A DNA stretch of 32,000 bases from an uncultured Lentisphaeria bacterium (lineage in GTDB: Bacteria; Verrucomicrobiota; Lentisphaeria; JABSQK01; JAJFLO01): assembly GCA_951812855.1 (NCBI GenBank), contig OX638337.1, positions 1,620,001 through 1,652,000 of the forward strand. Reading direction: 5' to 3'. The position numbers were made by a program, and so were the translations under genes. Position 1 is the first letter of the stretch, and each line of letters starts with the position of its first letter. Below the pieces are notes generated by a model. That model was not told the origin of the DNA. It searched no databases and saw only the letters and a program-made list of their open reading frames with translations. Below are positions 1 to 22,022 of this stretch, piece after piece.

Positions 1-3000
1 GAAGGTGCCATCGGGGCGGACGGTACATTTAAGGTGAATGCCGATGCTGATGGTGACGGTGTTACATCAGATGAAACATACAATATTGCAAATCATGCAG
101 TTGATGGAGCAGCAATTATTGTGGATAGTGCAGCAGCCAGGATTGCGAACAACAATATTTTAGGTAACGGAACGGGTATTCATCTCTTGGATATTGCTAC
201 AACTGTAAATGACAAAGCGGTTGCTACCACTCTTGATTATAACAGGATTGGAACAATCGGAGCACCGGCAAAAACTGCAGCTGAAACAGATATCGATGGA
301 CCTTCCGGTGATGGGTTGGGAGTAGGGTTTCATATTGCACACGAAACAGTAAAAGCTGATGCGGGAAACAACCTCGGTGATTTAACGGGAGCAATTACCG
401 ATGGGGATTCTGTTGTATATAATTCTAGTGATCTCAGAGTTGAAGGTTCAAACATTTATGATATAGCCACTCAGTTGCTCAACGTACGCGGAAATGTGAA
501 CGCTAATGCCTTGGCGATAAGTGATGATAAGACCGATGCTGCAGGTTTTCAGGTGCCGTTGGCTGCTGCGATTACGAATGCTGATTCAGCTGATGATGTA
601 GATTTAGGAACCACAACGGTTAGTTCTGTGATAACAGATATCAGTGTTGCAGTTACCGCTGTTAATAGCAGTGACACCGACCCGAATAAGGAACCGCCTG
701 CCTCAGTGAAGATTGCGACAGAAATTTCAAATTCCGATGCAGGTATAGATACAAGTAAAGATGCAGGTAAAACTGAAGAAGAAAACCGAGTTGCTCTGCA
801 GGAAAAAGTTAATGCTATCCTGGATGGCATTAAGCAGGAGCTTGCCAAACTCAATAAGGATAACACTGTCACAAAATTTGTTTTTGAGCTTAAACTTCCT
901 CCAGCCGATGTTGATGGAGTACATTTTAATGCATTCAACGTGCCGGGAGCAGAATTCATAATAAAAAAAGCAACGGGTGTTGTTGTGCTTACTGTGGGAA
1001 CACCTGCGTTGACGGTTGGAGATGGCGTGACATTGACTCTTCAGGGAACAGTCGTAACAGATTCAGACGGAAATGTAGTTAATTCCATTCAAGTTAAAAA
1101 CACCGATAAAACCGAAGTCGGTGATTCTCCAACTATTCTAGTGGAAAGTGGTGGTACTCTCAAAATTCGTAACGTAACCCTTGGTGAATCAACCATATTT
1201 GACCAGGCAGTAATAAAGATTGAGGGAACCGGGGTGTTAGATCTGGGAACAGCTGCTGATCTTGGAAATAATACGCTTACTGTTAACCCGCGAGTTAATG
1301 AAACAGACGGAACCATAACCAATTCAGCCTATCCGCATGGATTGTTCATTCTGCATAATGGATCAGTTGATGTAAGTGCACTTGGGAATATATGGATTGA
1401 TAATACAGCAGGTGCAAACACAGATATAAGCAAAGATAATGCAAAGATTCAAGCATTAATTGATACGTCGGGAGGTTCTGCAAAGGTAACAGTACTTCCA
1501 GCATTAAATGATGCTCCGACATTTGTTAAAGGTGCTGACATAACAATAAATCAAGATGTGGGACCTCAGACTGAATTTGCCTGGGCAACAGACATTAGTG
1601 CTGGAGCGATTGGCAAATTAGAATCTTTCACACTGACTGCAGTTTCTATCACTGTCCCTACTGCAGATGGATCAGGTACTGAGTCCGGAGCAGCAGAAAC
1701 TTTCTTTAAAGATGCACCAACAGTTGATAAGGATACAGGTGATCTGAAATATACTGTAGCTGACGGAATAACAGGTACCGCGACATACACTATCCATGCT
1801 ACCGATAATGGACCGGGAACAGGCGGTAATATTAATGTTAGTGCTAAGCAATCATTTACGATTACTGTACAGAAATTAAATGATGCTCCGACATTTGTTA
1901 AAGGTGCTGATATAACAATAAGTCAAGATGCGGGACCTCAGACTGAATCTGCCTGGGCAACAAACATTAGTGCTGGAGTGGTTGGCGAATTAGCATCTTT
2001 CACACTGACTGCAGTTTCTATCACTGTCCCTACTGTAGATGGATCGGGTACCGAGTCTGCAACAGAAGAAACTTTCTTTAAAGTTGCACCAACAGTTGAT
2101 GTGACTTCAGGTGATCTGAAATATACTGTAGCTGACGGAAAAACAGGTACCGCGAAATACACTATCTATGCTGCCGATAATGGACCGGGAACAGGCGGTA
2201 ATATTAATGTTAGTGCTAAGCAATCATTTACGATTACTGTACAGAAATTAAATGATGCTCCGACATTTGTTAAAGGTGCTGATATAACAATAAATCAAGA
2301 TGCGGGACCTCAGACTGAATTTGCCTGGGCAACAAACATTAGTGCTGGAGTGGTTGGCGAATTAGAATCTTTCACACTGGCTCCAGTTTCTATCGCTGTC
2401 CCTACTGCAGATGGATCGGATACCGAGTACACAACAGAAGCAACTTTCTTTAAAGTTGCACCAACAGTTGATAAGACTACAGGTGATCTGAAATATACTG
2501 TAGCTGACGGAAAAACAGGTACCGCGAAATACACTATCCAGGCTACCGATGATGGACCGGGAACAGGCGGTAATATTAATATTAGTGCTAAGCAATCATT
2601 TACGATTACTGTACAGAAATTAAATGATGCTCCGACATTTGTTAAAGGTGCTGATATAACAATAAATCAAGATGCGGGACCTCAGACTGAATTTGCCTGG
2701 GCAACAAACATTAGTGCTGGAGTGGTTGGCGAATTAGCATCTTTCACACTGGCTCCAGTTTCTATCGCTGTCCCTACTGCAGATGGATCGGGTACTGAGT
2801 CCGCAACAGAAGAAACTTTCTTTAAAGTTGCACCAACAGTTGATAAGACTACAGGTAATCTGAAATATACTGTAGCTGACGGAAAAACAGGTACCGCGAA
2901 ATACACTATCCATGCTACCGATGATGGACCGGGAACAGGCGGTAATATCAATGTTAGTGCTAAGCAATCATTTACGATTACTGTACAGAAAGGCGTTATA

Positions 3001-6000
3001 GTCGCAAAAACCCCTGATAAAAGCGTACCAACAGGTGATTTGGCACATTTTCCTCTTAACGAAGCAACCTGGAATGGAACAGCAGGTGAAGTTAAAGACA
3101 GTACAGGACTTGGAGCAGATGGAACCGCTAAAAATGGTGCCAAGACTGTTGCAGTCGAAGATAATGAAGCATTGACTCGTGCCGGTTCTTTTGATATTTC
3201 TGATCATTTTATTGCAATTGATACTGAAGGTAAACGAAGTATTATCACAAATGCTGACGGAGATCTTACTCTTACTGCATGGATAAAAACTACCAATAGG
3301 AGTGGGTTGCGTCATATTGCCGGGAAGTCTGCTTTTAGGAAAGACGGAGCGTTCGCGTTAATCTTGTCGAGCGGCAGGGCTATATTTTATGTAAATGGTT
3401 CAAGGCGGTTTCTGAGAGCAAAAGATAATGTAGCGACTGGAAAATGGGTACATTTGGCAGGTGTGTATGATGCCAGTGAAGGGACACTGAATCTATATGT
3501 CGATGGAAAATCAGTAGAGAATGATAACAAGGGAGCAGTGACCTTAAGCCTGGATAATGCCGTACCATTTACAATTGGTGGAGATGACGATGCTAGTTCT
3601 CAAGTAAGGAACTTTGATGGTTTGATTGGAGGGGTAAACGTATTTTCTACGGCTCAATCACCGGAAAACATCGCAGCAATAGCAAGTAACACGGCTTCTG
3701 AGTCTGAGTCTGAGCCGACTATAGGGTTTGTTATTTCAAAGGTTGAGACTGCAGATGTGGATTCAAATGGAAAACTTGACGCTCTGTTAATTACCTTTTC
3801 TGCTGCAATTGATGACGCAACATTTACTCAAGCCTTGATTTCAGGTGGTAATCTGGTTATAAAGAATGGAACGACCGATCTTAAAGCATCGTTAACAGTC
3901 GACCCAGCCAACAACACGTTGGATGGCGATGTTAATAATAATAGATATGTTATAAAAATTAATGAAGATGCAGGTCTGAATACGGGGGATACACCGACAG
4001 TGGCGTATACAAAACCGGCTACTGGAGGAATTACCAGTTCCGCGGCTGCCGGGTCTGTTTCACTCCCAAGTGTGACAATGACTGCAACAGATTCAGCTAA
4101 GCCGGCGCCTGAGCCTACTGAGCCTACTGAGCCTGAGCCGACTATAGGGTTTGTTATTTCAAAGGTTGAGACTGCAGATGTGGATTCAAATGGAAAACTT
4201 GACGCTCTGTTAATTACCTTTTCTGCTGCAATTGATGACGCAACATTTACTCAAGCCTTGATTTCAGGTGGTAATCTGGTTATAAAGAATGGAACGACCG
4301 ATCTTAAAGCATCGTTAACAGTCGACCCAGCCAACAACACGTTGGATGGCGATGTTAATAATAATAGATATGTTATAAAAATTAATGAAGATGCAGGTCT
4401 GAATACGGGGGATACACCGACAGTGGCGTATACAAAACCGGCTACTGGAGGAATTACCAGTTCCGCGGCTGCCGGGTCTGTTTCACTCCCAAGTGTGACA
4501 ATGACTGCAACAGATTCAGCTAAGCCGGCGCCTGAGCCTACTGAGCCTGCTGAGCCTGCTGAGCCTGCTGAGCCTGCTGAGCCTGCTGAGCCTGCTGAGC
4601 CTGCTGAGCCTGCTGAGCCTGAGCCGACTATAGGGTTTGTTATTTCAGAGGTTGAGACTGCAGATGTGGATTCAAATGGAAAACTTGACGCTCTGTTAAT
4701 TACCTTTTCTGCTGCAATTGATGACGCAACATTTACTCAAACCTTGATTTCAGGTGGTAATCTGGTTATAAAGAATGGAACGACCGATCTTAAAGCATCG
4801 TTAACAGTCGACCCAGCCAACAACACGTTGGATGGCGATGTTAATAATAATAGATATGTTATAAAAATTAATGAAGATGCAGGTCTGAATACGGGGGATA
4901 CACCGACAGTGGCGTATACAAAACCGGCTACTGGAGGAATTACCAGTTCCGCGGCTGCCGGGTCTGTTTCACTCCCAAGTGTGACAATGACTGCAACAGA
5001 TTCAGCTAAGCCGGTTGTGCTCAGTGCAAGTGCTGATTATAATACGAGCATTCGTAAACTGTCTATTACATTAAGTGAGAGGGTTGCTGCAACCTCAACT
5101 GACCTTTCAAAATTACATTTAAATGACGTTGCGGGAACGGACATTGTTACATTGACCGGAGCAACGAATTCCTCCACAGGCAAGGTAAATGTGATTAATT
5201 TGAAACTGATGCTGACACAACTTCGGAATGTACTTAAGATTTCCAGTCATCCTGAGGCAACTGGAACAGCGGGTGCAGTAGTATTGGACTCTGATTCTGG
5301 TGCGTTTACCGACGCTTCAGCGTCTGCAAATAAAAGTGCAGCTAAAGACAGTGTAAAGGTTACGGAAGTATTGGATTCAACGTCGCCTAAGGTAACGAAG
5401 GTTTCAGGCAAAGCAGGTAAGTTTGGTCCCGGTCAGGTTATTACAGTAACAGCTCAATTTAACGAAGTTGTTGACGTAACGGGTCCTGTTACTCTGGGAC
5501 TGACTCTTAGCAGTGGAAATGTAGTAGCAAACTATCTTTCAGGTGGCGGAACTGATACACTTACGTTCACTTACAAAACAGCTGCCGATAGAAGTGATTA
5601 TACGAGTGCGGGCGACTTAGTTGAATTTACTCCTGCCAATACTATTGGCGGGACGGGAACAGTTGCAGACGTTAGTGGTAATGAACTGGCTGACGCAGAC
5701 AAATCATTAGGTACCGGCGTTGCTAAACTCTCAACAAATGCTGAGATTCGTATTCTTAATACATCTATCACTATTGCCGTTCCGGGTACAAGAGAGGGGC
5801 AAAAATTTACCGCCACCGTTTCGTCAAATACACTTGGTCTTCAAGCACTGAATTTTACGATAATTTGCGAGAACAGCCAAATCGGGGAACTCAGTAATTT
5901 TGAGTTGCTCTCTAAGGGTGGTGCTACTTTAAGTTCAGATGCTGCTCTTGAGGGTGTCACTTCCTGGAAATCGGGTACTACAACCGTATACTTTGTGTCG

Positions 6001-6978
6001 GTGCGTAGTACCGAAAATGGTAAAGTTGCCGTTAAGGCTTCCGGAGACGTATTGACATTTACCGGCAGCGTTTTGGTTGGAGCCAAAGATAATACAGGTA
6101 CAGCTCTAAAAATTGGGAATGAATCCGGATCACTATCAATTGATTCAAAAGGTGCGGATGTTGAACTCGCTACTAACGCTGTAGCCGATTTTATTGATAC
6201 CCAATATAATCGTCTTGACGTAAATGAGAGTGGAAAAGTAGAGGCCGTAACTGATGGAGCCTGGATATTCAGAGCGGCACTCTATGGTGGTTTAGACGGA
6301 CTGGTACCAATTAACCGATCTGCTGAAGGAAGTAAAGAAGAAAATTTAGCGAAGGATCTGATTATTATCAGAAATGTAAATGGAGCCGGGCGTGTACCTG
6401 CGGGATCTGCGGGTTCATTTAATGTTGATGGAACTGGATCATTTGATGCGGGAACAGATGCAATTTACATTTTTAACAGATTGTCAGCATTAGCAGACGA
6501 TTCTGGAACAGTTAATACAGATACTAGTACTATTCCATCGCAGAACCGGGACGGTTTCACACCCGACCAAATTATTGCAATTAATAATGCTATTGATGCG
6601 TTGAATGCTGAAGCTGAGGATACATTAAACCCGGGTATTTTTGCAGGCACAGATCTTAAAAGATTGATAGATACTCAGAAACCCTTGTTAATTGGATTTA
6701 ACGAACATGTGAGAATCGCCCTCACGTCAAGTAATACTGACGAAGGGAAACTTTTGAATTCAACAAATATTCAAACGTTGATTGCCGACGAAGAATTTAT
6801 CAAAATAACAGGTAATCCAGAAACTACTACCTACACGTATGCAGTAGGTTCTGGTGCCAGAGTTATTACGGTAACTCCTTCAGGAGCCTGGTCAAAAGAT
6901 ACGAAGGTCCGTGTTAAGGAAACATTAGTGCAGGATGTTGAGGGTCTTGCCGGAACACGTACAGTTATTTTCGAATAG
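1..6978 (+). CDS. Giant modular cell-surface / adhesin-like protein, 5'-truncated by the window edge
   Basis: Frame 1 is open from nt 1, with no stop before the GTG at 34 used by the ORF track, so the N-terminus is off-window. Stop TAG is at 6976-6978 and is followed by a strong terminator. Motifs in the translation: 'NNILGNGTGIHL' beta-helix-like repeats; 4x 'LNDAPTFVKGADITINQD...FTITVQK' cadherin-like units. A LamG-like segment follows: 'LTLTAWIKT...GKWVHLAGVYD...LYVDG...NFDGLIGGVNVF'. Then 3x 'EPTIGFVISKVETADVDSNGKLDALLITFSAAIDD...'. Cohesin-like and dockerin-like segments and an SbsA-Ig-like tail lie near the C-terminus. Confidence 0.9.
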   Translation, partial: EGAIGADGTFKVNADADGDGVTSDETYNIANHAVDGAAIIVDSAAARIANNNILGNGTGIHLLDIATTVNDKAVATTLDYNRIGTIGAPAKTAAETDIDGPSGDGLGVGFHIAHETVKADAGNNLGDLTGAITDGDSVVYNSSDLRVEGSNIYDIATQLLNVRGNVNANALAISDDKTDAAGFQVPLAAAITNADSADDVDLGTTTVSSVITDISVAVTAVNSSDTDPNKEPPASVKIATEISNSDAGIDTSKDAGKTEEENRVALQEKVNAILDGIKQELAKLNKDNTVTKFVFELKLPPADVDGVHFNAFNVPGAEFIIKKATGVVVLTVGTPALTVGDGVTLTLQGTVVTDSDGNVVNSIQVKNTDKTEVGDSPTILVESGGTLKIRNVTLGESTIFDQAVIKIEGTGVLDLGTAADLGNNTLTVNPRVNETDGTITNSAYPHGLFILHNGSVDVSALGNIWIDNTAGANTDISKDNAKIQALIDTSGGSAKVTVLPALNDAPTFVKGADITINQDVGPQTEFAWATDISAGAIGKLESFTLTAVSITVPTADGSGTESGAAETFFKDAPTVDKDTGDLKYTVADGITGTATYTIHATDNGPGTGGNINVSAKQSFTITVQKLNDAPTFVKGADITISQDAGPQTESAWATNISAGVVGELASFTLTAVSITVPTVDGSGTESATEETFFKVAPTVDVTSGDLKYTVADGKTGTAKYTIYAADNGPGTGGNINVSAKQSFTITVQKLNDAPTFVKGADITINQDAGPQTEFAWATNISAGVVGELESFTLAPVSIAVPTADGSDTEYTTEATFFKVAPTVDKTTGDLKYTVADGKTGTAKYTIQATDDGPGTGGNINISAKQSFTITVQKLNDAPTFVKGADITINQDAGPQTEFAWATNISAGVVGELASFTLAPVSIAVPTADGSGTESATEETFFKVAPTVDKTTGNLKYTVADGKTGTAKYTIHATDDGPGTGGNINVSAKQSFTITVQKGVIVAKTPDKSVPTGDLAHFPLNEATWNGTAGEVKDSTGLGADGTAKNGAKTVAVEDNEALTRAGSFDISDHFIAIDTEGKRSIITNADGDLTLTAWIKTTNRSGLRHIAGKSAFRKDGAFALILSSGRAIFYVNGSRRFLRAKDNVATGKWVHLAGVYDASEGTLNLYVDGKSVENDNKGAVTLSLDNAVPFTIGGDDDASSQVRNFDGLIGGVNVFSTAQSPENIAAIASNTASESESEPTIGFVISKVETADVDSNGKLDALLITFSAAIDDATFTQALISGGNLVIKNGTTDLKASLTVDPANNTLDGDVNNNRYVIKINEDAGLNTGDTPTVAYTKPATGGITSSAAAGSVSLPSVTMTATDSAKPAPEPTEPTEPEPTIGFVISKVETADVDSNGKLDALLITFSAAIDDATFTQALISGGNLVIKNGTTDLKASLTVDPANNTLDGDVNNNRYVIKINEDAGLNTGDTPTVAYTKPATGGITSSAAAGSVSLPSVTMTATDSAKPAPEPTEPAEPAEPAEPAEPAEPAEPAEPAEPEPTIGFVISEVETADVDSNGKLDALLITFSAAIDDATFTQTLISGGNLVIKNGTTDLKASLTVDPANNTLDGDVNNNRYVIKINEDAGLNTGDTPTVAYTKPATGGITSSAAAGSVSLPSVTMTATDSAKPVVLSASADYNTSIRKLSITLSERVAATSTDLSKLHLNDVAGTDIVTLTGATNSSTGKVNVINLKLMLTQLRNVLKISSHPEATGTAGAVVLDSDSGAFTDASASANKSAAKDSVKVTEVLDSTSPKVTKVSGKAGKFGPGQVITVTAQFNEVVDVTGPVTLGLTLSSGNVVANYLSGGGTDTLTFTYKTAADRSDYTSAGDLVEFTPANTIGGTGTVADVSGNELADADKSLGTGVAKLSTNAEIRILNTSITIAVPGTREGQKFTATVSSNTLGLQALNFTIICENSQIGELSNFELLSKGGATLSSDAALEGVTSWKSGTTTVYFVSVRSTENGKVAVKASGDVLTFTGSVLVGAKDNTGTALKIGNESGSLSIDSKGADVELATNAVADFIDTQYNRLDVNESGKVEAVTDGAWIFRAALYGGLDGLVPINRSAEGSKEENLAKDLIIIRNVNGAGRVPAGSAGSFNVDGTGSFDAGTDAIYIFNRLSALADDSGTVNTDTSTIPSQNRDGFTPDQIIAINNAIDALNAEAEDTLNPGIFAGTDLKRLIDTQKPLLIGFNEHVRIALTSSNTDEGKLLNSTNIQTLIADEEFIKITGNPETTTYTYAVGSGARVITVTPSGAWSKDTKVRVKETLVQDVEGLAGTRTVIFE
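1504..2991 (+). repeat. Four in-frame tandem repeats of 372 bp (124 aa) encoding cadherin-like 'NDAPTF' domains
   Basis: 'ttaaatgatgctccgacatttgttaaaggtgctga' recurs at 1504, 1876, 2248 and 2620, an exact 372-nt period. The antisense shadow ORFs in the ORF track repeat with the same period. Copies are clearly diverged: a by-eye alignment of copies 1 and 2 shows roughly 30 mismatches. Confidence 0.95.
3712..5014 (+). repeat. Three near-identical tandem modules (423, 486 and about 394 bp) encoding a 141-aa domain plus Pro/Glu/Thr/Ala linker
   Basis: 'gagccgactatagggtttgttatttca' starts at 3712, 4135 and 4621. Copies 1 and 2 looked identical at every base I compared. Copy 3 differs at 4648 (K->E) and 4741 (A->T). 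Identity ends at about 5014, where the linker is replaced by 'gttgtgctcagtgca'. Confidence 0.95.
4543..4620 (+). repeat. Perfect 9-bp microsatellite (GAGCCTGCT)x8 plus a partial unit, encoding an (EPA)n linker
   Basis: Read directly: gagcctgct repeated from 4543 to 4614, then gagcct at 4615-4620. The equivalent junction after copy 1 (4114-4134) has only (gagcctact)x2. Confidence 0.97.
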
Positions 6979-7017
6979 ATACATATAACGGGTTATAACT
7001 GTTAGGAACAAAAGATC

Positions 7018-7058
7018 AAAGCCGCAGTCTTATTTTGACTGCGGCTTTTTTTTATTTT
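7018..7058 (+). terminator. Rho-independent terminator of the giant surface-protein gene
   Basis: Stem gccgcagtc (7021-7029) pairs with gactgcggc (7037-7045) around a 7-nt loop. It is extended by aaa/ttt and followed by T8-A-T4, 40 nt after the stop codon. Confidence 0.9.
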
Positions 7059-7505
7059 GTAAAATTTTGATTGATATGCAACAGGGATTAAGGATTATTT
7101 TCCGAAGTATATTTAAAATGACTTTCAAAAAAATTTAAGTTGACAGTTTACACACTAATTATTGTATGCCCGGGATTTAATCACAATCGGTTATATCACA
7201 CTGTTTATTGCTATACTAATGGTATTATTTAACCGTACATTTGATTCTGTTGAACACCAATATTGTACAGACGCATCATACTGAAAGGGGATTTGACTGT
7301 AATATTTTTTATATGATAAAAAGATCGAAAATAGTTATTGTTTTCAATTAGCGTATGCCCGACACCTAATATAACATATTACATAAAAGGATTCGATGAA
7401 GAGTATCATGTACTTTGCTTTAATGATTGGGAGTTTCTTTTACTCATTCCCAGTATAGATATGAATATACTCTGCCTGATAAAATGTATATTTTAAGAAT
7501 TCGAG

Positions 7506-7532
7506 TGCAAAACTTCCTCAGGGAGTTTTGCA
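7506..7532 (+). promoter_or_regulatory. Strong hairpin in the long spacer upstream of the 248-aa cohesin-like gene (possible attenuator or terminator-like element)
   Basis: tgcaaaact (7506-7514) pairs with agttttgca (7524-7532). Inner pairs are t-g, c-g and c-g, leaving a 3-nt loop, and the hairpin is followed by the U-rich 'atttattatttaat'. Function is not established. Confidence 0.35.
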
Positions 7533-7917
7533 ATTTATTATTTAATCCTCCTTCAGGGCTTGTCTGCTGTGGTGGATTTTATTCCCGGTCTGTTGTCGTG
7601 TTTGTTGAACACTCTCATACCGTTCAGCGGTACGAGCTGTCTTACTGCACTCGGTTGCGGGGTAGGGGGACGTTAATTAAATGTTATTCCAATTCCATAT
7701 TTTTAATATGTTAATATTATGTTATCTCATTACTAATTGTCATCTATCAAAATGTGTAACACAAATATCTGTGTAGTATTGAACTGACAATGAGGTATTT
7801 GGAAAAAAGAATATTCCCGGCGAACTTGATGTGTTTTTCAATATAAAATTTGATCTTTGGTTTTTATCGGGATTAAATCAGTTATACTGAACATCTTAAA
7901 ATTAAAAATATCAGAAT

Positions 7918-8664
7918 ATGAATTATAACTTAAAATTTATTTGTTTTTCTATTCTTGCATTTGTTATCGGCTGCAGCGTTTTTTTTCTATTCTTATTTTT
8001 TATAAAGAATCAAGCAGCCCCAAAGCCAGAAGTTTTAGGTGGATCAAAAGAAAATATTAAAACGTCTCAAGCAGAGACCGCAGTTAAAAAATTTGAAAAG
8101 CCGAAAGAGCACAAGCGCAGGGGAAAAAAGGAAATTATTACTTTCATAGAAGAAGAGCTTGAACCTGAAGAATATATTGAAGAAGAGCCGAGTTTAGAGG
8201 AAATTAAGGCTTTTGCAGCATTCTTGCCGGAGGATCTTGAGGATAAACAAAAGATGGTCTATATGGATATAGGTAATTATGATGTTGATACAGGTGAAGA
8301 ATTTGAAATTAGTATTCGAGTGGATGCACCGGCGTTGGTTAATTTTTCATTAATGATGGAGTTTAATCAGGAATTTATTGAGTATGTCAGCGATAGTGCC
8401 AAAGCTGTCGGGAAGATGTTCCGCTATGGTATTGAGTTTTATGCTCAAAACGACAAAGGAAGAATGATTTTGATCAGCAAAGGACATCCCGGGGCGAAGC
8501 AGACAGAAAAAGTAGAAGATAGACCGGTTGCCGTTTTTCGAATGAAAGCAAAACAGTCCGGTATTACGAAAATAAATTTTTCAGGAAAAGGTATCATTCT
8601 CCTTGATCCGTTTGGAGGTAAATTAGAGTACGACGTTAAGGGTGGAGTCATTGAGATACGATAA
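7918..8664 (+). CDS. Membrane-anchored protein: N-terminal TM anchor, acidic linker, C-terminal cohesin-like module
   Basis: 248-aa ORF with an ATG start. Hydrophobic N-terminus 'FICFSILAFVIGCSVFFLFLFFI'; Glu-rich linker 'EEELEPEEYIEEEPSLEE'. C-terminal pattern 'GEEFEISIRVDAPALVNFSLMMEFNQEFIEYV...VAVFRMKAKQSGITKINF...GGVIEI' resembles cohesin domains. Confidence 0.7.
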   Translation: MNYNLKFICFSILAFVIGCSVFFLFLFFIKNQAAPKPEVLGGSKENIKTSQAETAVKKFEKPKEHKRRGKKEIITFIEEELEPEEYIEEEPSLEEIKAFAAFLPEDLEDKQKMVYMDIGNYDVDTGEEFEISIRVDAPALVNFSLMMEFNQEFIEYVSDSAKAVGKMFRYGIEFYAQNDKGRMILISKGHPGAKQTEKVEDRPVAVFRMKAKQSGITKINFSGKGIILLDPFGGKLEYDVKGGVIEIR

Positions 8665-9445
8665 AAAATCTCTGAAGGGTTTAAGATTCGGCATAGTCGT
8701 GTAGAAGTGGGAATGTGATTTTGGCCAAAACAATAATCACCTGCAACTTAACTTAAGGTTGTTTCAACACTGATATCAATCGATAAATATTTAATTATTA
8801 TTTAATCATTTGCTAATATCGAGTATATTTCAGCATTTTTCGATATATATCATTTTGTGTTATATTGGAACATTTTTTCAGCCCCTTAACGCAGTCTCAT
8901 TTAGTTTAAGAGAAAACCTCGTCCGGCATTCAACATTGGCCTCAGGATTCTTTATGTTTCACGGGGGATTGATATTTGTTGGAGTTTATCGGCTTTACGG
9001 TGGTAAAGCCGACCAGGGTTCACTGCTCTGGGTGTGCAATGAGGCGTATTATAAAAACATCGATCGACGACGGGTGAACTTCGACGACCATGATTGGAAA
9101 ATATTCCAGATATTTGGCTCGGGTAATTTGATTTTTGTTTTTATATTATTGAAAAACGTCAGGATTTTAAATTAACTGTATGGTCAATCCAATCATTACA
9201 TATTTAATTATTAAATCGGGAAATTTAATATTACTTGATTATTGATAACCAATACGATTGATGTAAGGTTAATTATTAGATTTCGCAGTCTTCTTATGGT
9301 CTGTTACACGATCAATGTCAGGACTAAAATGAAATTATGCTATATTTAGTGAATCGCAATGAAGTTTAGGCGTTGTTTATCAATGGTTGAGCAGTAAGCT
9401 ATGTTATTTCAACAGCCTGTCAAATTTTAACCCGGTGAATTTTTA

Positions 9446-11434
9446 ATGAAGTTACATTTAGGTATAATATTTTTCGTCTTTTTTATAATCCCATGTTATT
9501 CCTTGACCACTGTTACTGTGTCGCCGGAGACGTTTGACGCTGAGATTGATGAGAACGTTACCATTGAAGTTAGTGTCGAGAACGATCAAGAGTTGAGAGA
9601 GTTTATTTTCAGAGTGTCCTTTGACCCCGAATTCCTTGCACCTGTCAGTGAATTGACGCAATCCGGATTTGAAATTATTCCGAAGCCCGAGGATAGAATT
9701 GTTTCATTACAAAAGTTCACGGAATATAAAAATTCATTAAGATTTAGGTTTCTTGCAGATTTGTCCGCATTAAGTTCTGTCGCTGTAGGTAGTGGTTCAG
9801 GAAAACTATTCAGCTTCAAATTAAAGGCGTTGAAATACGGTACAACGAATCTGACCTATTCCAGACCCCGTGTAACACTTGTTAAGCTCGTTGATGGAAA
9901 CTCTGTAGAGGACGAGGTGATCTATGATAAAGGGGGAAAGGTGAATATTAAACCTAATAACCCAGGGATTAATAATGTTGAAGTGAACGAGGGAGATACA
10001 GGGGAAGTATCCCTCGGATTTACAGTTTATTTAGGGGAACCAGGGGATAATGTTGTAACTGTCTTTGCAAATACTGTAGACGAGACGGCAAGACAGGAAG
10101 ATAATGATTATGAACCGTTGGTCGATTATCAGCTTGTTTTCAATCCTGGAGAAACGTTAAAGAATTTCAATGTAAAAATCAATGGAGACACTAAGCTGGA
10201 ATCTGATGAAACATTTGAGGTTAAATTATCAAGTTCTGATGTCACGTTTGTTAATGATACCGGAACGGGAACGGGTACTATTAAAAATGATGACTCAACT
10301 TTAATATCTATAGATGATGTAAGAAAAATAGAAGGTGATATTGCCGAAACAACATCGTTTGATTTCACCGTATCACTAAGTCATGCCAGTGAGATACCAA
10401 TAACCGTTCAATATAGTACGGCAGATGGGAGTTCAACTGGTCTACCGGAACCTGCGACACTAAGCGATAATGATTATCAGAGGAAATCAAATGAAACCCT
10501 GACCTTTAATCCAGGGGATTTGTCTAAAATTTTGTCAATTCTGGTAAATACAGACACTAAGGTTGAAGGTGATGAACGCTTTTTTGTTGATTTGTCTAAT
10601 CCTCGCCTTGAAGGTGTCTCCAAGCCTTCTGTATTGAGTATTTTCGATGCTCAGGGAGTCGGGATTATAAGGGACGATGACAAATTAAAACCGGTAATAA
10701 CATCTATTACAAGGGCCGGCATTGAATCTCAAGGGAGCAATTATTTTGTCAAATTTTTGGTGAAATTTAATAAAGATGTAGAAAATGTCAGCTCTGATGA
10801 TTTTGAATTGACTAAGAATCCTGCTGCCCTGACTCCCTCAATTAGCCAGACCAATAATTCAGCACCAGCAGTACATGACAGTTATTTAATTTCAGTAAAT
10901 ACTGGACCGGGAGAAGGGACTATCGGTATTACCATTAAGTCATCGAATGATATTCAGGACGTTAATAACCGTCTTCTCACGGTACCGGGTAGTTTTGTAA
11001 ACGAATCATTTGTGATCTGGGAGAAGAGCCTATCGGTTACTAAAGGATGGAATCTGTTTTCATTACCCGGCCCTGTATTCAATAAAGAATTTTCAAATCT
11101 TTTTCCTGATGCATTGCCAAGTATCTGGACGTGGAATTCCTCTACATTTATTAAGGTAACAAATGCAGTTGATTTGGAAAAAAAGGGGTTCTGGATTTAT
11201 TTCCCGAATAAAGCAACGATTTCGATTCGCGGAGTTAATGCAAATTCATCATCAACCAGTTTGGTAAAGGGATGGAATCTTGTTGGTGTTACGAGTGAAT
11301 TAAGTGATTTTTCGGGTTTACCTGTAAGGATGCCTATGTGGTTTTGGCAGGGAAATCACTATGCAAGCATTCAACGTCTTTCGCCATTTATTGGATATTG
11401 GATTTATTCACGAGATTCAAGAGAACTAAAGTAA
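9446..11434 (+). CDS. Secreted protein: signal peptide, cohesin-like module, two Calx-beta-like domains, duplicated C-terminal GWNL/W-x-W module
   Basis: 662-aa ORF with signal-like 'LGIIFFVFFIIPCYS'. Cohesin-like 'ENVTIEVSVENDQELREFIFRVSFDPEFLAPV...KLFSFKLKALKYGTTNLTY'. Calx-beta-like 'NDYEPL...FNPGETLKNFNVKINGDTKLESDETFEVKLS' and 'NDYQRKSNETLTFNPGDLSKILSILVNTDTKVEGDERFFVDLS'. Confidence 0.8.
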   Translation: MKLHLGIIFFVFFIIPCYSLTTVTVSPETFDAEIDENVTIEVSVENDQELREFIFRVSFDPEFLAPVSELTQSGFEIIPKPEDRIVSLQKFTEYKNSLRFRFLADLSALSSVAVGSGSGKLFSFKLKALKYGTTNLTYSRPRVTLVKLVDGNSVEDEVIYDKGGKVNIKPNNPGINNVEVNEGDTGEVSLGFTVYLGEPGDNVVTVFANTVDETARQEDNDYEPLVDYQLVFNPGETLKNFNVKINGDTKLESDETFEVKLSSSDVTFVNDTGTGTGTIKNDDSTLISIDDVRKIEGDIAETTSFDFTVSLSHASEIPITVQYSTADGSSTGLPEPATLSDNDYQRKSNETLTFNPGDLSKILSILVNTDTKVEGDERFFVDLSNPRLEGVSKPSVLSIFDAQGVGIIRDDDKLKPVITSITRAGIESQGSNYFVKFLVKFNKDVENVSSDDFELTKNPAALTPSISQTNNSAPAVHDSYLISVNTGPGEGTIGITIKSSNDIQDVNNRLLTVPGSFVNESFVIWEKSLSVTKGWNLFSLPGPVFNKEFSNLFPDALPSIWTWNSSTFIKVTNAVDLEKKGFWIYFPNKATISIRGVNANSSSTSLVKGWNLVGVTSELSDFSGLPVRMPMWFWQGNHYASIQRLSPFIGYWIYSRDSRELK

Positions 11435-12876: not shown

Positions 12877-14325
12877 ATGTTGAAAGTCATCTCTAATATT
12901 ATAGTCCTGTCACTGAGTATAACTCTGTTTTCAGGGTGTAGAACGAAAAGTACACTGAAGGATGTACAAACAGAAACAGGGATATCATTTCCAGATAAAT
13001 GGATATCATTAGCTCACGATCAAGTTGAGGCACATCCTATTGGGTGGCTTAGTGATATTAATGATTCGTATTTAACCGCACTGGTAACAGAAGCAATTGA
13101 AAAGAACCGGGATATAAAAGCAGCGGCATCACGAGTCAATTCAGCGATAGCTCAGGCAAAAATTGAAGGTGCGTCTCTTAAACCGAATTTAAGTCTTGAG
13201 TCAGGTGCATCCAAAACGAAACGTACATCTTCCAGCGGATTTGCACTGTCAAACGTCCGATCAAATAACTATAATTTCGGCTTATTTACTAATTGGGAAA
13301 TTGATTTATGGGGTCGGCTGCGTAATCAGGTTGATGCATCATATAATGATCTCAATGCGGCAACAATGGACAAGAAATCAGTGTCTCTGTCTGTCGCGGG
13401 TAATGTTGCTAAATCCTGGTACGGACTCATCGAATCAAAATTACAGGTTAATCTTTCCCGAAAAACTGTAAAGAGTTTTGAAAATTCGCTGATTAGCATT
13501 GAACAGGGATTTCGAACCGGAATCAACAGTGCCCTTGATGTACGTTTAGCCCGGGCAAATATCTTTGTGGCCAAGAATCGATTATATGAAGCACTGAGAG
13601 CTTTTCAAAACCAAAAACGGACGTTGGAAATTTTATTGGGCAGATACCCAAGAGGTGAACTTGAAACGCGCAACTCCTTCCCGGAATTGAAACGACGCAT
13701 CCCGGTCGGACTGCCAATGGATCTCTTAATGCGGCGACCAGACCTCATTGCAGGTCACCAGCGTTTAGCGGCAAATGATTATCGGTGGCAGGATAAAAAA
13801 CGCAACTGGCTGCCGTCTCTTGCACTAACAGGAAATGGCGGGACATCAAGCAGTAAGTTCAAAAATCTGATGAATTCAAATTTTGGAGTCTGGAACATCG
13901 CAGCTGTTATCATGCAACCCTTATATAACAGTGGTCGCCTTTCAGCAGAACGTGCCATGGCATTGGCAAACAAAGATAAATCCCTGGCTGATTTTTCTCA
14001 GCTGATTCTTCGTGCTCTTAAAGAAGTTGAAATTGGGATCACGAACGAAGATTTGTTATTCAATCAGGAAATCGCATTGAAATCAGCTAAAGATGAATCC
14101 GTCATTGCTGAGACAATAGCCCGGGAACGATATCAAAAGGGACTTGAGAATATAACCACACTTCTTGAAGCCCGGCGACGTTCATTCGAAGCCCGGAACA
14201 ATTTTTTAACTGTAAAGAGCAGGCGAATTCAAAATCGTATTGATCTTTATTTAGCACTGGGGGGAGATTTTGGAATAGAGGGAAAGCAGGATAGAAACAA
14301 AAAATCACCCACAGAAATTAAATAG
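12877..14325 (+). CDS. Efflux outer-membrane factor lipoprotein (NodT/OprM family)
   Basis: 482 aa with lipobox 'LFSGC' at residues 17-21. Two TolC-like repeat halves with 'WEIDLWGRLRN' and 'RRPDLIAGHQRLAA...LPSLALTGNGG', which are classic OMF motifs. Confidence 0.88.
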   Translation: MLKVISNIIVLSLSITLFSGCRTKSTLKDVQTETGISFPDKWISLAHDQVEAHPIGWLSDINDSYLTALVTEAIEKNRDIKAAASRVNSAIAQAKIEGASLKPNLSLESGASKTKRTSSSGFALSNVRSNNYNFGLFTNWEIDLWGRLRNQVDASYNDLNAATMDKKSVSLSVAGNVAKSWYGLIESKLQVNLSRKTVKSFENSLISIEQGFRTGINSALDVRLARANIFVAKNRLYEALRAFQNQKRTLEILLGRYPRGELETRNSFPELKRRIPVGLPMDLLMRRPDLIAGHQRLAANDYRWQDKKRNWLPSLALTGNGGTSSSKFKNLMNSNFGVWNIAAVIMQPLYNSGRLSAERAMALANKDKSLADFSQLILRALKEVEIGITNEDLLFNQEIALKSAKDESVIAETIARERYQKGLENITTLLEARRRSFEARNNFLTVKSRRIQNRIDLYLALGGDFGIEGKQDRNKKSPTEIK

Positions 14326-14441: not shown

Positions 14442-15806
14442 ATGAAAACGAAATTACGATTTTTCCTGCCACTGTTTATTGTGGCAATATGTGCTGGAAT
14501 CGCCTATCTGCTAATCAAAAATAAACCTGAGCAGGAGCGCCATAAATCCGATACAAAGACATTAGCAGTTGAAGCCATAAGAATTGAACGTCAGAATTAC
14601 CAAATTGTACTAAAATCTCGTGGCGTCGTAAAACCACGTACTGAAACAACACTTGTTTCCGAAATATCAGGTCGAATTATTAAAATATCTGATAATTTTA
14701 TGGAAGGTGAATTTTTCAATGAGGGAGAGGCTTTAGTTCAAATCGATGATCGCACATACAAGGCTGAAGTAAAAATTGCAAATTCAGAATTGATGTCTTC
14801 ACGTTCAGCATTTGAACAGGAAAGAGTCAATGTTACGAATTTTGAGACTCAAATTATTTCAGCAGAATCAACACTGGAACGGGCTATATTAGCGTATAAA
14901 GAAGAAGTTGCCAGGGGGAAACAGGCACTTAACGATTGGGAACGGCTACATCCTGATAGACGCCCCGACGAGCTGGTATTGCGCAGGCCACAATTAGCAA
15001 CTGCCAAAGCCGCAGTTGCTGCAGCAGAAGCGTTATTGGAACAGAGCCAACGCAATGCGGAATTAGGTCCCTATCAAGTTGCTGCTGCTAAAGCAAAGGT
15101 CGAAGCAGCCGAAGCAAGCCTGGAAAAAAGGAAATTAGATTTAGAACGTACCAAAATTATTGCTCCATTTACAGGCATCGTTCTCACTAAAAATGTAGAC
15201 ACAGGTCAATACATAAGCCAAAATACTCCTCTCGCAAACATTTATGCAGTCGACTATGTTGAAATTAGGTTGCCGCTATCGAACCAACAACTTGGATATA
15301 TTAATCTGCCCGAACACCATCGGAATACCGGAAATACCCCTGTATCATCATTTCCGTCGGTAATTTTAACCTCCTCTCTCGGTCTAAACGTGTATAAATG
15401 GAATGGAAAGTTGATTCGATCAGAAGGCACATTTGATCCTGCGAGCAGGCAACTTTTTGTAATCGCCAAGGTTGATAATCCCTATGACCGCAGCAAATAT
15501 GATCGACCGCCATTAAAAATTGGTCAATTTGTGGAAGCAGAAATTGATGGGATCATTGCCCGGGATGTCATAGTTGTTCCAGGAACATCCGTACGTACTG
15601 GAAATGAAGTACTGGTCATTATAGAAAACAACAAACTTCAGCGGCGTACCGTCAAATCATTTTGGTCAGATGAAGAAAATGTGATCATTTCCGAAGGGAT
15701 CTCCGAAGGTGAAATTTTGTGTATTACACCGCTGAATTTTGCTATTGATGGAATAACGGTGTCAGCAACTATAAAGGGGAACAGCATGAAAAACGGAGGA
15801 CAGTAA
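14442..15806 (+). CDS. Efflux periplasmic adaptor (membrane fusion protein, HlyD/RND-MFP family)
   Basis: 454 aa with N-terminal TM 'FFLPLFIVAICAGIAYLLI'. Lipoyl/hairpin pattern 'VSEISGRIIKI...GEALVQIDDRTYKAEV', a long Ala/Glu-rich coiled hairpin, then 'TKIIAPFTGIV' and a C-terminal beta-barrel-like segment. Confidence 0.88.
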   Translation: MKTKLRFFLPLFIVAICAGIAYLLIKNKPEQERHKSDTKTLAVEAIRIERQNYQIVLKSRGVVKPRTETTLVSEISGRIIKISDNFMEGEFFNEGEALVQIDDRTYKAEVKIANSELMSSRSAFEQERVNVTNFETQIISAESTLERAILAYKEEVARGKQALNDWERLHPDRRPDELVLRRPQLATAKAAVAAAEALLEQSQRNAELGPYQVAAAKAKVEAAEASLEKRKLDLERTKIIAPFTGIVLTKNVDTGQYISQNTPLANIYAVDYVEIRLPLSNQQLGYINLPEHHRNTGNTPVSSFPSVILTSSLGLNVYKWNGKLIRSEGTFDPASRQLFVIAKVDNPYDRSKYDRPPLKIGQFVEAEIDGIIARDVIVVPGTSVRTGNEVLVIIENNKLQRRTVKSFWSDEENVIISEGISEGEILCITPLNFAIDGITVSATIKGNSMKNGGQ

Positions 15807-19127: not shown

Positions 19128-21077
19128 ATGAGGAATTCAAATCCAAAACCAAATCAACTTTCTTTAGTTTGTCTGATTATCGTAATATTACTCAATTTAT
19201 TGAACTGTTTTTTTACTCATAAATGGCCTGATATTTACATTCTAAAGAGCATATCGTTAAACCTGGCTTTACTGGCAGTATTTTCCGGGTTCGCTTTATC
19301 AGAATCATTTTTAGCTGGTCGTAAACAAGCCGAAGATGTCGACAATGACGTATTGAAACACAGCCTGAAGTCTTCGGATATTTTTAATCAGTCTTCACTG
19401 TCATCCCCCGCTGCCTCTTCTTATAAACTGGTGATCTGCTATATCATTCCGGCAATGACTGCTGCTGCCGGACTTGTATTTGCCGGCTTGAATATATATA
19501 GACTTAAATCCTGGGTCCACCATCTCACAACACCGCCTGTCAGCAGTTTTAATATATCTGGAATCTGTTTTTTTATGTTCTTTTTTTGCGTGCTATCCGG
19601 AAGTTATTACAACGGTCTTTCCGGCAATCAATCTCACCGTTGGCTGCGACCCATTGGTTCCTGGCTTCTATATTTAAGTTTTCTTTATGCTCTGACTATT
19701 GCTTCGGCCATCATCTTTCATATAAATTCTATTAATCCTGATTATACTATATTCCGGATAATCAGTATCCTAAACATAATCTTCGGCCTGGAACTTATCG
19801 GTAATGTTATCATTGAAATATATCGGCCAAAAATACAATCGTTAGAAGTCAATCCTATATTTGAAAGCCGTTTTCTGGCGTTTTTCACAGCACCGGATGG
19901 TTTTTTACAGAATATAGCAAATACCATTGATTATCAGTTTGGAATTAAGATATCAGACACTGAGTTAAATCATTTTATTAATCGACTTGTATTCCCCTAT
20001 GTTATACTGGTTTGCCTGAGTTTATATTTTTTTGAATGCATTGTCATCATTGATTCTGATGAGGTCGGTATCATTGAACGTGCGGGCAAACCCATTAAAG
20101 AATCACTGTTACCACCCGGAATGCATTTTAAATTTCCCCGCCCCATCGATCGACTGATAAATGTTCCGGTAAAAAAAATAAGAAAAGTCATCGTCGGTTT
20201 CAATGAACCCCATCAGGAAACCGAACAAGAAACGCACAAAATTCATAAGGCCGATAAAAACCATACTGATAAGGTAATCCTATGGAACAAACGTCATCAT
20301 CATTCCGAAGAAACGTTTTTAATTGCAAGTCGGCTCGATACAACCCGTTCTCATTTTAAGGATGCTTCCCGGGGCAATGGGTATCGACCCACATCGGCTA
20401 ATTTAATCGCAGCTGCCATTCCTGTATTTTATTCCGTTGATGAATCCAAGATTTTTGACTACGTCTATAACTACAAAAATCAGGCGGAATTAATCAAAAA
20501 AATTGCGTATCGCGAAATAATTTCCTACCTGGCATCAGCCGATTTTATCCACATCATAGGAAAAGGACGCATGGAGGCTAAATCTGATATTGAAATGAGA
20601 ATAAGAAACGCTTTTGCAACAATGAAGCCTGCTGTCGGTATAAAAATACATTACGTCGGCATTATGGAAATCCATCCACCTGTCACTGTGGCAGGTGCTT
20701 TTCAAAATCTTATTGGGGCGAAGGAATTATCAAATACCACTATACTTAAATCTCAAAAAAACGCGGTGATAACCAAACGTGATGCAGAAATTAAGAGCCA
20801 CGCATTAAAATCAGAAGCTGAGGGTTATTTATATGAAGAGCAGCAACTGGCAAAAGCTGAAGTACAGCGATTTAGAGAGCAACAAAAATTATTTCATATC
20901 TCTCCAAAATTATATAAGTTACGCACATTTTTAGATCTATTCGAAACTGAAACAGAAGATGTGAAGAAATACGTCATTACAAGTGATTCCAAAGAAACAT
21001 TCATCATAGATTCACAGCAAAGACTAAGCCCCGATTTATTAAACGACCTAAACGTTGAACCTGCTAAGGAGAAATAA
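19128..21077 (+). CDS. SPFH/band-7 (HflK/C-like) protein with a ~300-aa N-terminal polytopic membrane extension
   Basis: 649 aa. About six hydrophobic helices precede the SPFH anchor helix, for example 'LSLVCLIIVILLNLL', 'LVICYIIPAMTAAAGLVFAGL', 'ISGICFFMFFFCVLSG', 'IGSWLLYLSFLYALTIASAIIF' and 'IFRIISILNIIFGLELIGNVII'. The SPFH core follows: 'IVIIDSDEVGIIERAGKPIKESLLPPGMHFKFPRPIDRLINVP', with a C-terminal 'AEAEGY...AKAE' coiled region. Confidence 0.8.
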   Translation: MRNSNPKPNQLSLVCLIIVILLNLLNCFFTHKWPDIYILKSISLNLALLAVFSGFALSESFLAGRKQAEDVDNDVLKHSLKSSDIFNQSSLSSPAASSYKLVICYIIPAMTAAAGLVFAGLNIYRLKSWVHHLTTPPVSSFNISGICFFMFFFCVLSGSYYNGLSGNQSHRWLRPIGSWLLYLSFLYALTIASAIIFHINSINPDYTIFRIISILNIIFGLELIGNVIIEIYRPKIQSLEVNPIFESRFLAFFTAPDGFLQNIANTIDYQFGIKISDTELNHFINRLVFPYVILVCLSLYFFECIVIIDSDEVGIIERAGKPIKESLLPPGMHFKFPRPIDRLINVPVKKIRKVIVGFNEPHQETEQETHKIHKADKNHTDKVILWNKRHHHSEETFLIASRLDTTRSHFKDASRGNGYRPTSANLIAAAIPVFYSVDESKIFDYVYNYKNQAELIKKIAYREIISYLASADFIHIIGKGRMEAKSDIEMRIRNAFATMKPAVGIKIHYVGIMEIHPPVTVAGAFQNLIGAKELSNTTILKSQKNAVITKRDAEIKSHALKSEAEGYLYEEQQLAKAEVQRFREQQKLFHISPKLYKLRTFLDLFETETEDVKKYVITSDSKETFIIDSQQRLSPDLLNDLNVEPAKEK

Positions 21078-21078
21078 A

Positions 21079-22017
21079 ATGCCTGAAAATAAACCACTTG
21101 TTCGCTGGCCGATGTATCTGACAATCGCGATGATTCTGACTCTTTTATGCACAACGTTATTTACCTATAGCGTTCGCCACACCGACCATGCGGTGGTTCT
21201 TCGATTTGGCAAACCAATTATGGAAAAAAATACTGATCCGGGTCTCCATTTCAAATTACCGTTTGAGACCGTTTGGACTGCAGACAACCGAATTCAATGC
21301 TTCGAAGGTGAATCTGGAATCGTCGAAGAGATATTCACAAATGACGAGAAAAATATCACCGTAACTCTTTTCATGTGCTGGAAAATATCAGAAGATAAAC
21401 GCTTGACTTACCTGGAGCGTGTCGGAAACGGCCCGGCGGCTCGACTTGAATTGACGGCATTACTAAGAAGCTATAAGAACAGTGTTTTTGGAAAATATAA
21501 ATTTGAAGATTTAGTCAATATCGATCGAAACAAGATTAAGATTCGACAAATTGAGCGTGAAATCCTGGCATTGATCAGTATTGAAGCGTTAGACTTGTAT
21601 GGCATTGAAGTTTCAGATATCGGCGTAACTCATCTTGGCTTTCCTGAAACTGTAACGAAGAAAATATTTGCACGAATGGAAGCTGAACGAGAAACTGAAG
21701 TTCAAAAAATCTTATCCGAAGCCGATATAATTTCGGCAAAAATTAAAACTGATGCCGATAGAGAAAGCGTAAAACGACTGGCAAACGCCGAAGCTGAAGC
21801 AACCCGAATTCGAGCAAAAGGCGATGCTGAGGCGGCAAAACATTATGCCGTATTTGAGCAGAATCCTGAACTCGCGGCTTACCTTCGGAAATTAAATTCT
21901 CTCAAGCAAATATTAACAGAAAAAACGACCCTCATTTTAGATACAGAAACCGCTCCGTTTGATTTACTGAAAAATGACGGATTGGAGAGCAATATTCCAA
22001 CCAGAATCAGTCAATAA
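21079..22017 (+). CDS. SPFH/band-7 protein, HflC-like
   Basis: ATG at 21079 is preceded by SD aaggag (21066-71) and lies 1 nt after the upstream stop; the ORF track's TTG at 21055 is less likely. Single TM 'YLTIAMILTLLCTTLF', then 'AVVLRFGKPI...PGLHFKLPFETV' and 'ANAEAEATRIRAKGDAEAAKHYA'. Confidence 0.85.
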   Translation: MPENKPLVRWPMYLTIAMILTLLCTTLFTYSVRHTDHAVVLRFGKPIMEKNTDPGLHFKLPFETVWTADNRIQCFEGESGIVEEIFTNDEKNITVTLFMCWKISEDKRLTYLERVGNGPAARLELTALLRSYKNSVFGKYKFEDLVNIDRNKIKIRQIEREILALISIEALDLYGIEVSDIGVTHLGFPETVTKKIFARMEAERETEVQKILSEADIISAKIKTDADRESVKRLANAEAEATRIRAKGDAEAAKHYAVFEQNPELAAYLRKLNSLKQILTEKTTLILDTETAPFDLLKNDGLESNIPTRISQ

Positions 22018-22022
22018 CAGTT

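Follow-up and report, generated by a model that had tools for sequence, protein, structure and literature searches.

Divergent cohesins encoded beside a giant protein with an EF-hand pair in an uncultured diderm bacterium

Described cohesin systems and the present locus

Few known protein-protein interactions are as strong as those between cohesins and dockerins, and synthetic biology makes wide use of such pairs as modular connectors. Single-cohesin anchoring scaffoldins bind the C-terminal X-dockerins of large scaffoldins. Such anchoring scaffoldins (ScaE of Ruminococcus flavefaciens; SdbA, OlpA and OlpC of Clostridium thermocellum) resemble a locus that we analysed in a 32,000-nucleotide stretch of contig OX638337.1 (the window) from an uncultured Lentisphaeria bacterium. 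Here, three plus-strand genes encode the 3' part of a giant secreted protein, a 248-aa membrane protein and a 662-aa secreted protein (Table 1). Like the anchoring scaffoldins, the 248-aa protein has one cohesin on a flexible, envelope-anchored linker, and a large modular protein that ends in a beta-sandwich and a calcium-loop module, like an X-dockerin, is encoded nearby. The modelled 248-aa protein matches the cohesins of OlpC and OlpA with TM-scores (target) of 0.73-0.75, and PDB entries 4dh2 and 3ul4 are among its fold matches. Unlike the anchoring scaffoldins, which use SLH domains or sortase in monoderm cells, it is held by an N-terminal transmembrane (TM) helix in a diderm. The locus also lacks enzymes and a scaffoldin bearing carbohydrate-binding modules (CBMs), its cohesin is invisible to Pfam, and its putative plug is non-canonical.

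Cohesins and dockerins outside cellulosomes have been found in every domain of life (Peer et al. 2009, as relayed in PMC6461901 and PMC10066038). For instance, the non-cellulosomal cohesin of Archaeoglobus fulgidus (2xdh) is a fold match of the 248-aa model (rank 32, E 4.5e-7), and the cohesin/FIVAR-dockerin toxin complexes of Clostridium perfringens NagJ (2w1n, 2jh2, 2ozn), as here, place cohesins outside cellulose degradation; NagJ cohesins are among the top PDB profile matches of the module type that heads the 662-aa protein. The A. fulgidus and NagJ systems pair with recognisable dockerins, whereas this locus is without one and its 248-aa protein belongs to a TM-anchored family of about 50 clusters. 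The 'planctosome' is a hypothesised non-cellulosomal cohesin/dockerin complex of freshwater Planctomycetes (PMC6461901). It likewise belongs to the Planctomycetes-Verrucomicrobia-Chlamydiae (PVC) group and consists of signal-peptide proteins with cohesin, dockerin and hyaline-repeat (HYR) domains, whose proposed site of assembly is the envelope; two giants related to that of the window (in loci L004 and L014) also carry HYR-like repeats, beside their C-terminal cassette. The planctosome differs in having Pfam-detectable domains, an LTD anchor and peptidases, where the present locus has a TM-cohesin anchor, Pfam-invisible modules and no peptidases. For Omnitrophota, reports exist of giant proteins rich in dockerins and of a CBM-like barrel with flanking dockerin-like helices (PMC10066038; bioRxiv 10.1101/2023.11.21.568195). 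The literature that we searched held no account of the TM-stalk cohesin family, the paired secreted cohesin or the EF-hand duplicate described below.

An earlier note on this DNA had proposed a cohesin- and dockerin-like system for surface tethering, with a cohesin-like module in each of the three consecutive genes. All the strings that it quoted are present where it placed them, and the modules of the 248-aa and 662-aa proteins are upheld by profile or structure, that of the giant at family level only. Its view that carbohydrate-active catalytic modules are missing agrees with our searches, which found no CAZy catalytic domain in the three proteins and, from Pfam, just Laminin_G_3 (giant) and Calx-beta (662-aa protein); as enzyme modules are absent, the locus is not a cellulosome. 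The Pfam models that the note had suggested for a check gave nothing: neither Cohesin (PF00963) nor Dockerin (PF00404) matched any of the three proteins at E <= 1. Single-sequence phmmer against the PDB found nothing significant (the top match covers 27 residues of cohesin 5m2s, E 0.75), and BLASTP among the three modules found barely any mutual match (E 0.04-3). Standard tools are thus blind to these modules, and profiles and structure were required.

The membrane-stalk cohesin and its secreted companion

We built an AlphaFold2 (AF2) model of the 248-aa protein from a 50-sequence alignment. Its mean predicted local distance difference test score (pLDDT) is 89, reaching at least 94 in the C-terminal module, which forms a beta-sandwich at residues 114-247. 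In a Foldseek search of the PDB, suggested in the earlier note, ranks 1-38 are all cohesins (TM-score (target) 0.53-0.80) and Ig-like adhesin domains enter the list from rank 39 only. The top matches are 4uyp_C (E 4.8e-9) and CaCohA2 (TM-score (target) 0.80, root-mean-square deviation (rmsd) 2.3 Å), and all of the ten best, except one two-domain chain, score 0.70-0.80, with rmsd 2.3-3.1 Å. Superposition on the nine-stranded flattened beta-sandwich of cohesins was thus obtained for this protein, and for this one only, at a sequence identity of 9-17% to the solved cohesins.

Sequence profiles lead to the same fold. In an exhaustive search of 1.84 billion representative proteins, the profile of the C-terminal module matched 67, and about 50 clusters (at 50% identity) share the same ~245-aa architecture. 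The profile also reaches bona fide PF00963 proteins (E 4.9e-15 to 1e-4), among them one with three Pfam cohesins (P0055, E 4.9e-15), one with seven (P0057, E 9e-13) and four further Pfam-recognised cohesin proteins (P0060, P0064, P0066 and P0067). Three of these multi-cohesin relatives have a Dockerin_1 match too (P0060, P0066 and, just below the gathering score, P0057). As a reference for true cohesins we aligned 21 Pfam-positive cohesin domains; against it, the 248-aa family scores 98.2% by hhalign over 131 columns.

The family alignment keeps the order TM helix, Pro- or acid-rich linker, cohesin, and an N-terminal hydrophobic helix is present in 46 of the 52 members, so the envelope anchor that characterises anchoring scaffoldins has a counterpart here. 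As modelled, the 248-aa protein crosses the membrane once and carries one type-I-like cohesin on a flexible stalk of about 80 residues, which bears out the TM anchor, acidic stalk and cohesin read from its sequence in the earlier note. These TM-stalk cohesins form a family of about 50 clusters without database name or annotation, and precomputed Pfam annotation was empty for all five members found in the first search. Two other readings of the N-terminus were rejected: a lipoprotein, as the Cys is not conserved across the family, and a type IV pilin, as the G|FTLIE motif is absent.

The window encodes a TolC-like OEP, a HlyD/RND-type membrane-fusion protein and a TpsB/Omp85-type outer-membrane transporter. 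Because of its TolC-like, TpsB and Omp85-type outer-membrane proteins, the host is a diderm bacterium, of the PVC group. The TM helix would then lie in the inner membrane, and therefore the cohesin should face the periplasm and not the outer surface; any tethering in which it takes part would occur within or across the periplasm. This leaves the surface tethering of the earlier note doubtful.

Proteins with DUF1573, an Ig-like domain of the HYDIN/VesB kind, adjoin the TM-cohesin genes of two relatives (L014 8181-9401 and L021 159-977). One protein (P0048) combines, as a fusion, a DUF1573 domain and a cohesin from the TM-cohesin family, a Rosetta-stone hint of a functional link.

The N-terminal module of the 662-aa protein, as a single sequence, aligns by hhalign with the TM-cohesin family at 93% (E 3e-7) and with the true cohesins at 83.7%. 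When it is aligned with its counterparts from related loci (alignment A6), the values rise to 98.6% (E 6e-16) and 95.6% (E 1.3e-8, 102 columns), respectively. Eight of the nine PDB matches of the A6 profile are cohesins, including the ScaB cohesin dyad 3l8q (E 0.0014) and C. perfringens NagJ. As judged from these profiles, the mature N-terminus of this Sec-exported protein is a cohesin.

Further along the 662-aa protein, aa 317-389 match TIGR00845. Its W-rich C-terminal domain holds two copies of the motifs GWNL(I/F/V)..PG, W.W and G(F/Y)W(I/M/V), and is 33% identical to the C-terminus of an 857-aa cohesin-headed protein in L014 (~7200-7620). This domain, for which no Pfam or PDB sequence match was found, could therefore represent an undescribed family of modules that bind the envelope or the outer membrane.

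A TM-cohesin gene followed by a gene for a signal-peptide protein with an N-terminal cohesin is found in the window and in L004, L014, L008, L017 and L021, and this pair is conserved in every relative with readable downstream sequence. The downstream protein of the relatives is either bare (171-177 aa, signal peptide and cohesin) or has its cohesin fused to variable repeats. A giant with the same C-terminal cassette lies directly upstream of the TM-cohesin gene in five loci (the window with L001, L002, L004, L014 and L016). The conserved gene order asked about in the earlier note therefore recurs in part: the arrangement is seen again in L002, L004, L014 and L016, but the giant is upstream in closer relatives only, and the constant pair is the TM-cohesin with the secreted cohesin.

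The region downstream of the TM-cohesin gene in L002 (10745-12464) has no cohesin-headed gene. It holds two copies of '...PHDKLNALI..LDAKIMANG.HS' segments, perhaps a repeat element or else a stretch that is degraded where the contig ends.

Cohesins that Pfam does not see thus exist as a membrane-stalk family of about 50 clusters and as two further divergent groups encoded beside it. PF00963-based surveys are therefore likely to under-count the non-cellulosomal cohesins of PVC-group bacteria.

The giant protein and its C-terminal cassette

The giant begins with a Sec signal peptide (read in its L001 counterpart) and a beta-helix-like N-terminus, followed by four cadherin-like 'NDAPTF' repeats, a Laminin_G_3 domain, three Ig-like repeats with PEPT/PEPA linkers and the C-terminal cassette. 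This cassette consists of a divergent cohesin-like module, a duplicated EF-hand-like unit and an Ig-like domain; the last has only weak matches, to Cadherin-like and Big_5 (E 0.013 and 0.052), and an AF2 pLDDT of 64-75. In the giants of L004 and L014, HYR-like repeats replace the cadherin-like repeats of the window and the cassette is kept.

The window is about 98% identical to L001, a contig of a European Nucleotide Archive (ENA) metagenome assembly; a second contig of that assembly encodes an identical 662-aa protein, and there the giant product is called at 2704 aa. Between window positions 1-5700 and L001 positions 1581-9059 the repeat copies differ: four versus three for the cadherin-like units ('NDAPTFVKGADIT') and three versus two for the 'PTIGFVIS' Ig-like units, with a long PEPA linker in the window and products of 2704 versus 2492 aa. 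Such a difference between strains of about 98% identity suggests rapid expansion and contraction of the repeats.

Within the part of the giant that aligns with cohesins, the strings 'GQKFTATVSS' and 'VLTFTGSVLV', which the earlier note had quoted, begin at nt 5797 and lie at about nt 6049-6078, respectively. We aligned the window module with its orthologues in three related giants (A7). By hhalign, A7 scores 87.4% against the 21 true cohesin domains (E 3.7e-6, 87 columns) and 95.2% against a merged 77-sequence cohesin profile (E 2.8e-8), over 128 columns, the full domain. Against the true-cohesin reference the observed score is 40.9, compared with a maximum of 16.7 in 100 column shuffles and 15.8 for the reversed alignment, and ten beta-rich domains taken from elsewhere in the same proteins reach a probability of 3% at most. 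A model of the giant's C-terminus from a two-sequence alignment had a pLDDT of 39.5 and was therefore kept out of the fold search. The module is probably a very divergent cohesin homologue, a reading that the family supports and the single sequence does not.

The dockerin-like calcium-binding pair that the earlier note had read in the giant is real, duplicated and conserved. The two units (LDVNESGKVEAVTDGAWIFRAALYGG... and FNVDGTGSFDAGTDAIYIFNRL...) match one another (E 0.003), and the pair is kept in four related giants. Each unit has about 50-68 aa and a 13-residue loop with a conserved T-D-G at positions 12-14, and the window's module is 130 aa long. Both window repeats show the pattern D/N-x-D/N-x-[DST]-G...T-D, which is generic to EF-hands. 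Near-perfect tandem duplicates of a ~50-aa unit also end unrelated high-GC metagenome proteins (L011 1612-2844, L012 3-4247 and L013 55-1191; consensus LDVDxxGxxxxxTDGVYIFRxLxG..VVP..FR.LDP.IP.D), one of which has beta-propeller-blade-like repeats. Because it occurs at the extreme C-terminus of unrelated proteins, the unit behaves as a mobile, unclassified C-terminal domain.

Like a type I dockerin (PF00404), the pair has a tandem DxDxxG loop with an amphipathic helix ending in Gly, and it lies in the usual dockerin position, near the C-terminus of the giant and at the very C-terminus in L011-L013. Compared with that family, however, the loop has 13 residues and not 12 (T-D-G is shifted by one), the units have about 50 aa and not about 22, the whole module has 110-140 aa and not about 60-70, and neither Pfam nor the PDB gives a sequence match; a dockerin proper has two ~22-residue F-hands (a 12-residue calcium loop and a helix) in a module of ~60-70 aa, and the geometry here departs from it. 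Whole-domain hhalign against true dockerins gives 5.7-29.6%. The per-repeat comparison with dockerin F-hand repeats reaches 81.9% (P 1.1e-5, 22 columns; score 21.7 versus a maximum of 14.9 in 100 shuffles), with a one-residue loop insertion needed. By sequence criteria, the EF-hand pair is not a canonical dockerin; plausibly, it works like one.

Possible assemblies and the surrounding genes

We tentatively favour the reading that the locus encodes a set of cell-envelope proteins that assemble through cohesins outside any cellulosome, in which the EF-hand pair would act as the calcium-dependent plug that tethers the giant. Support for a bond between the giant's C-terminal module and the membrane cohesin comes from synteny alone, the cassette being encoded directly upstream in five loci. 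The duplicated unit would be a dockerin-type plug for one or both of the free cohesins, and the giant could thereby be held by the membrane cohesin, the secreted cohesin protein or both, by analogy with the anchoring scaffoldins. Its own cohesin-like module may serve as a support for the plug, like an X-module, or as an extra socket for the formation of chains. A more specific form of this reading takes the ~50-aa unit, with its 13-residue loop and T-D-G-x-Y-I-F-R helix, as an unrecognised dockerin class that pairs with an equally unrecognised family of inner-membrane-anchored cohesins, and with the secreted cohesins, in diderm PVC bacteria, so that a Ca2+-dependent tether would connect adhesin-like giants across the periplasm with the cytoplasmic membrane. 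We consider that form rather unlikely; if true, it would give a cohesin-dockerin system with a new type of plug, a new type of anchor and a new cellular compartment.

Several observations weigh against a plug in the giant. Five dockerin-like segments gave no PF00404 match in Pfam even at E <= 10, and the unit's searches of NCBIfam and, by profile, of the PDB were empty, with no dockerin, whereas simple phmmer with a true dockerin (that of P0060) as positive control picks up 27 PDB chains. The same control also matches calmodulin-like proteins, which makes likeness at the EF-hand level generic, and the per-repeat likeness extends no further than a generic EF-hand loop and the beginning of the helix. 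In the L004 and L014 giants, the second loop is degenerate. No cohesin was found within the flanks examined around the dockerin-like proteins of L011-L013. The giant's cohesin-like module alone scores at background, with 0.8% against the true cohesins and 11.5% against the merged profile. An inner-membrane anchor in a diderm is a poor fit for an adhesin that is displayed on the outer surface. The giant gene is a separate transcription unit: a strong intrinsic-terminator-like hairpin follows it, AT-rich gaps of 0.8-0.9 kb part the genes, and the three genes are therefore not one unit, nor does the constant pair include the giant. The distant TM-cohesin loci L017, L019 and L021 show no giant or dockerin-like gene in their flanks, and the cohesin pair would therefore not depend on an adjacent giant; these flanks are just 0.3-3.6 kb long, so the absence is weak evidence.

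The last two points equally suit an explanation in which the cohesins are real and their partner lies elsewhere. The TM-cohesin and the secreted cohesin would then be a two-gene system of their own, whose ligand is either a dockerin, canonical or unknown, encoded at another place in the genome, or not a protein, and the giant's cassette would be a self-contained, calcium-stiffened, intramolecularly packed unit. The pair does occur in L017 and L021 without a nearby giant or dockerin-like gene, the DUF1573 proteins linked to the TM-cohesin family by neighbourhood and fusion point to other partners, and the EF-hand unit is no canonical dockerin. In addition, only about 6 residues lie between the cohesin-like module and the dockerin-like unit of the giant, close enough for an intramolecular contact. 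On the other side, five loci have kept the giant and its cassette upstream of the TM-cohesin even where the repeat regions were exchanged, and the short flanks of the distant loci count for little. We regard this explanation, the chief rival, as somewhat unlikely. Should the giant not be the partner, the conserved pair still requires a ligand.

It is quite unlikely that the cohesin folds are generic beta-sandwich or lectin-like domains, binding glycans or envelope polymers or acting as spacers, in an ordinary envelope or surface cluster without socket and plug. Cohesins and CBMs share a broad beta-sandwich class of fold, the identity to the matched cohesins is low, the proteins carry other lectin-like or calcium-binding modules (Laminin_G_3 and Calx-beta), and none of the three has a recognisable dockerin. 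However, the homology is specific to cohesins, as all 38 top fold matches are cohesins ahead of the first Ig-like adhesin, and the profile links lead to multi-cohesin proteins, three of them with a Dockerin_1 match. A lone cohesin on a membrane stalk, and secreted proteins of 171-177 aa with nothing but a signal peptide and a cohesin, resemble dedicated binding modules and not spacers.

That the giant is a type-I-secreted, RTX-like adhesin, served by the OEP and HlyD-family genes found 1.4 kb past the 662-aa gene and unrelated to the small proteins, is highly improbable and was rejected: the giant begins with a Sec signal peptide, Pfam shows no RTX, haemolysin-type or type I secretion C-terminal signal domains in it, no ABC transporter gene adjoins the pair, the membrane-fusion protein is annotated as RND/CzcB barrel-sandwich type, and the pair is not beside the cluster in L004 or L014.

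If the pairing that we favour holds, the EF-hand duplicate would be a new dockerin class and, with its cohesin, an orthogonal connector pair, and the locus would offer a testable model of the way in which uncultured diderm bacteria keep giant envelope proteins in position.

Table 1. Features of the locus and its neighbourhood (nucleotide positions in the window)
Feature	Position (nt)	Residues (aa)	Strand	Remarks
Giant secreted protein	1..6978		+	3' part, 6.98 kb; 5' end cut by window; full product 2704 aa
Divergent cohesin-like beta module of giant (REGQKFTATVSS...ADFI)	5791..6195		+	hhalign, four-member family alignment A7; probable
Dockerin-like pair (LDVNESGKVEAVTDGAWIF / FNVDGTGSFDAGTDAIYIF)	6214-6603		+	duplicated EF-hand-like unit
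Dockerin-like unit 1	6214..6417		+	EF-hand-like loop LDVNESGKVEAVTDG, helix AWIFRAALYGG, tail
Dockerin-like unit 2	6418..6603		+	loop FNVDGTGSFDAGTDA, helix IYIFNRL, tail ending AINNAIDAL
C-terminal Ig-like domain of cassette (LLIGFNEHVRI...VQDVEG)	6673..6975		+	conserved in giants of L002, L004, L014, L016
Intrinsic-terminator-like hairpin	7018..7048		+	12-bp stem then T-run, 40 nt past giant stop codon
248-aa bitopic membrane protein	7918..8664		+	TM helix, acidic disordered stalk, cohesin
TM helix of 248-aa protein	7927-8007	4-30	+	AF2 model
Acidic disordered stalk of 248-aa protein		31-~112	+	low confidence at 31-92 in AF2 model
Cohesin domain of 248-aa protein	8257..8658	114-247	+	profile search, hhalign, AF2/Foldseek
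662-aa secreted protein	9446..11434		+	signal peptide, N-terminal cohesin, two Calx-beta, unassigned middle region, W-rich C-terminal domain
N-terminal cohesin of 662-aa protein	9509..9958	~22-171	+	hhalign, PDB profile search
Two Calx-beta (Ca2+-binding beta-sandwich) domains	9980..10615		+	Pfam PF03160, E 1.8e-21, two stretches
W-rich C-terminal domain (GWNL..PG..W.W..G[FY]W twice)	11018..11431		+	common to L014 857-aa protein
OEP	12877-14325			1.4 kb downstream of 662-aa gene
HlyD-family membrane-fusion protein	14442-15806			annotation: RND/CzcB barrel-sandwich type

The three genes are parted by AT-rich spacers of 0.94 kb (6979-7917) and 0.78 kb (8665-9445), with a GC content of about 31%. 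Neither spacer has conserved nucleotide or translated similarity to the relatives, and Rfam gave no match and no riboswitch there; the gap in L002 that is equivalent to the window spacer measures 2.3 kb. The spacers hold only two dubious open reading frames (ORFs), of 95 aa (7427-7714) and 121 aa (8810-9175), which have no family matches and are probably non-coding.

Further along the window, three tandem SPFH/Band 7 genes (649, 320 and 349 aa; 19128-23072) are followed by a P-type ATPase gene (23111-25105). A TpsB/ShlB-type transporter gene for two-partner secretion (TPS), with POTRA_2 and ShlB domains, lies at 27270-28997 on the plus strand. It is adjoined by a convergent 926-aa ORF (29100-31880, minus strand) without Pfam match or recognisable TPS domain.

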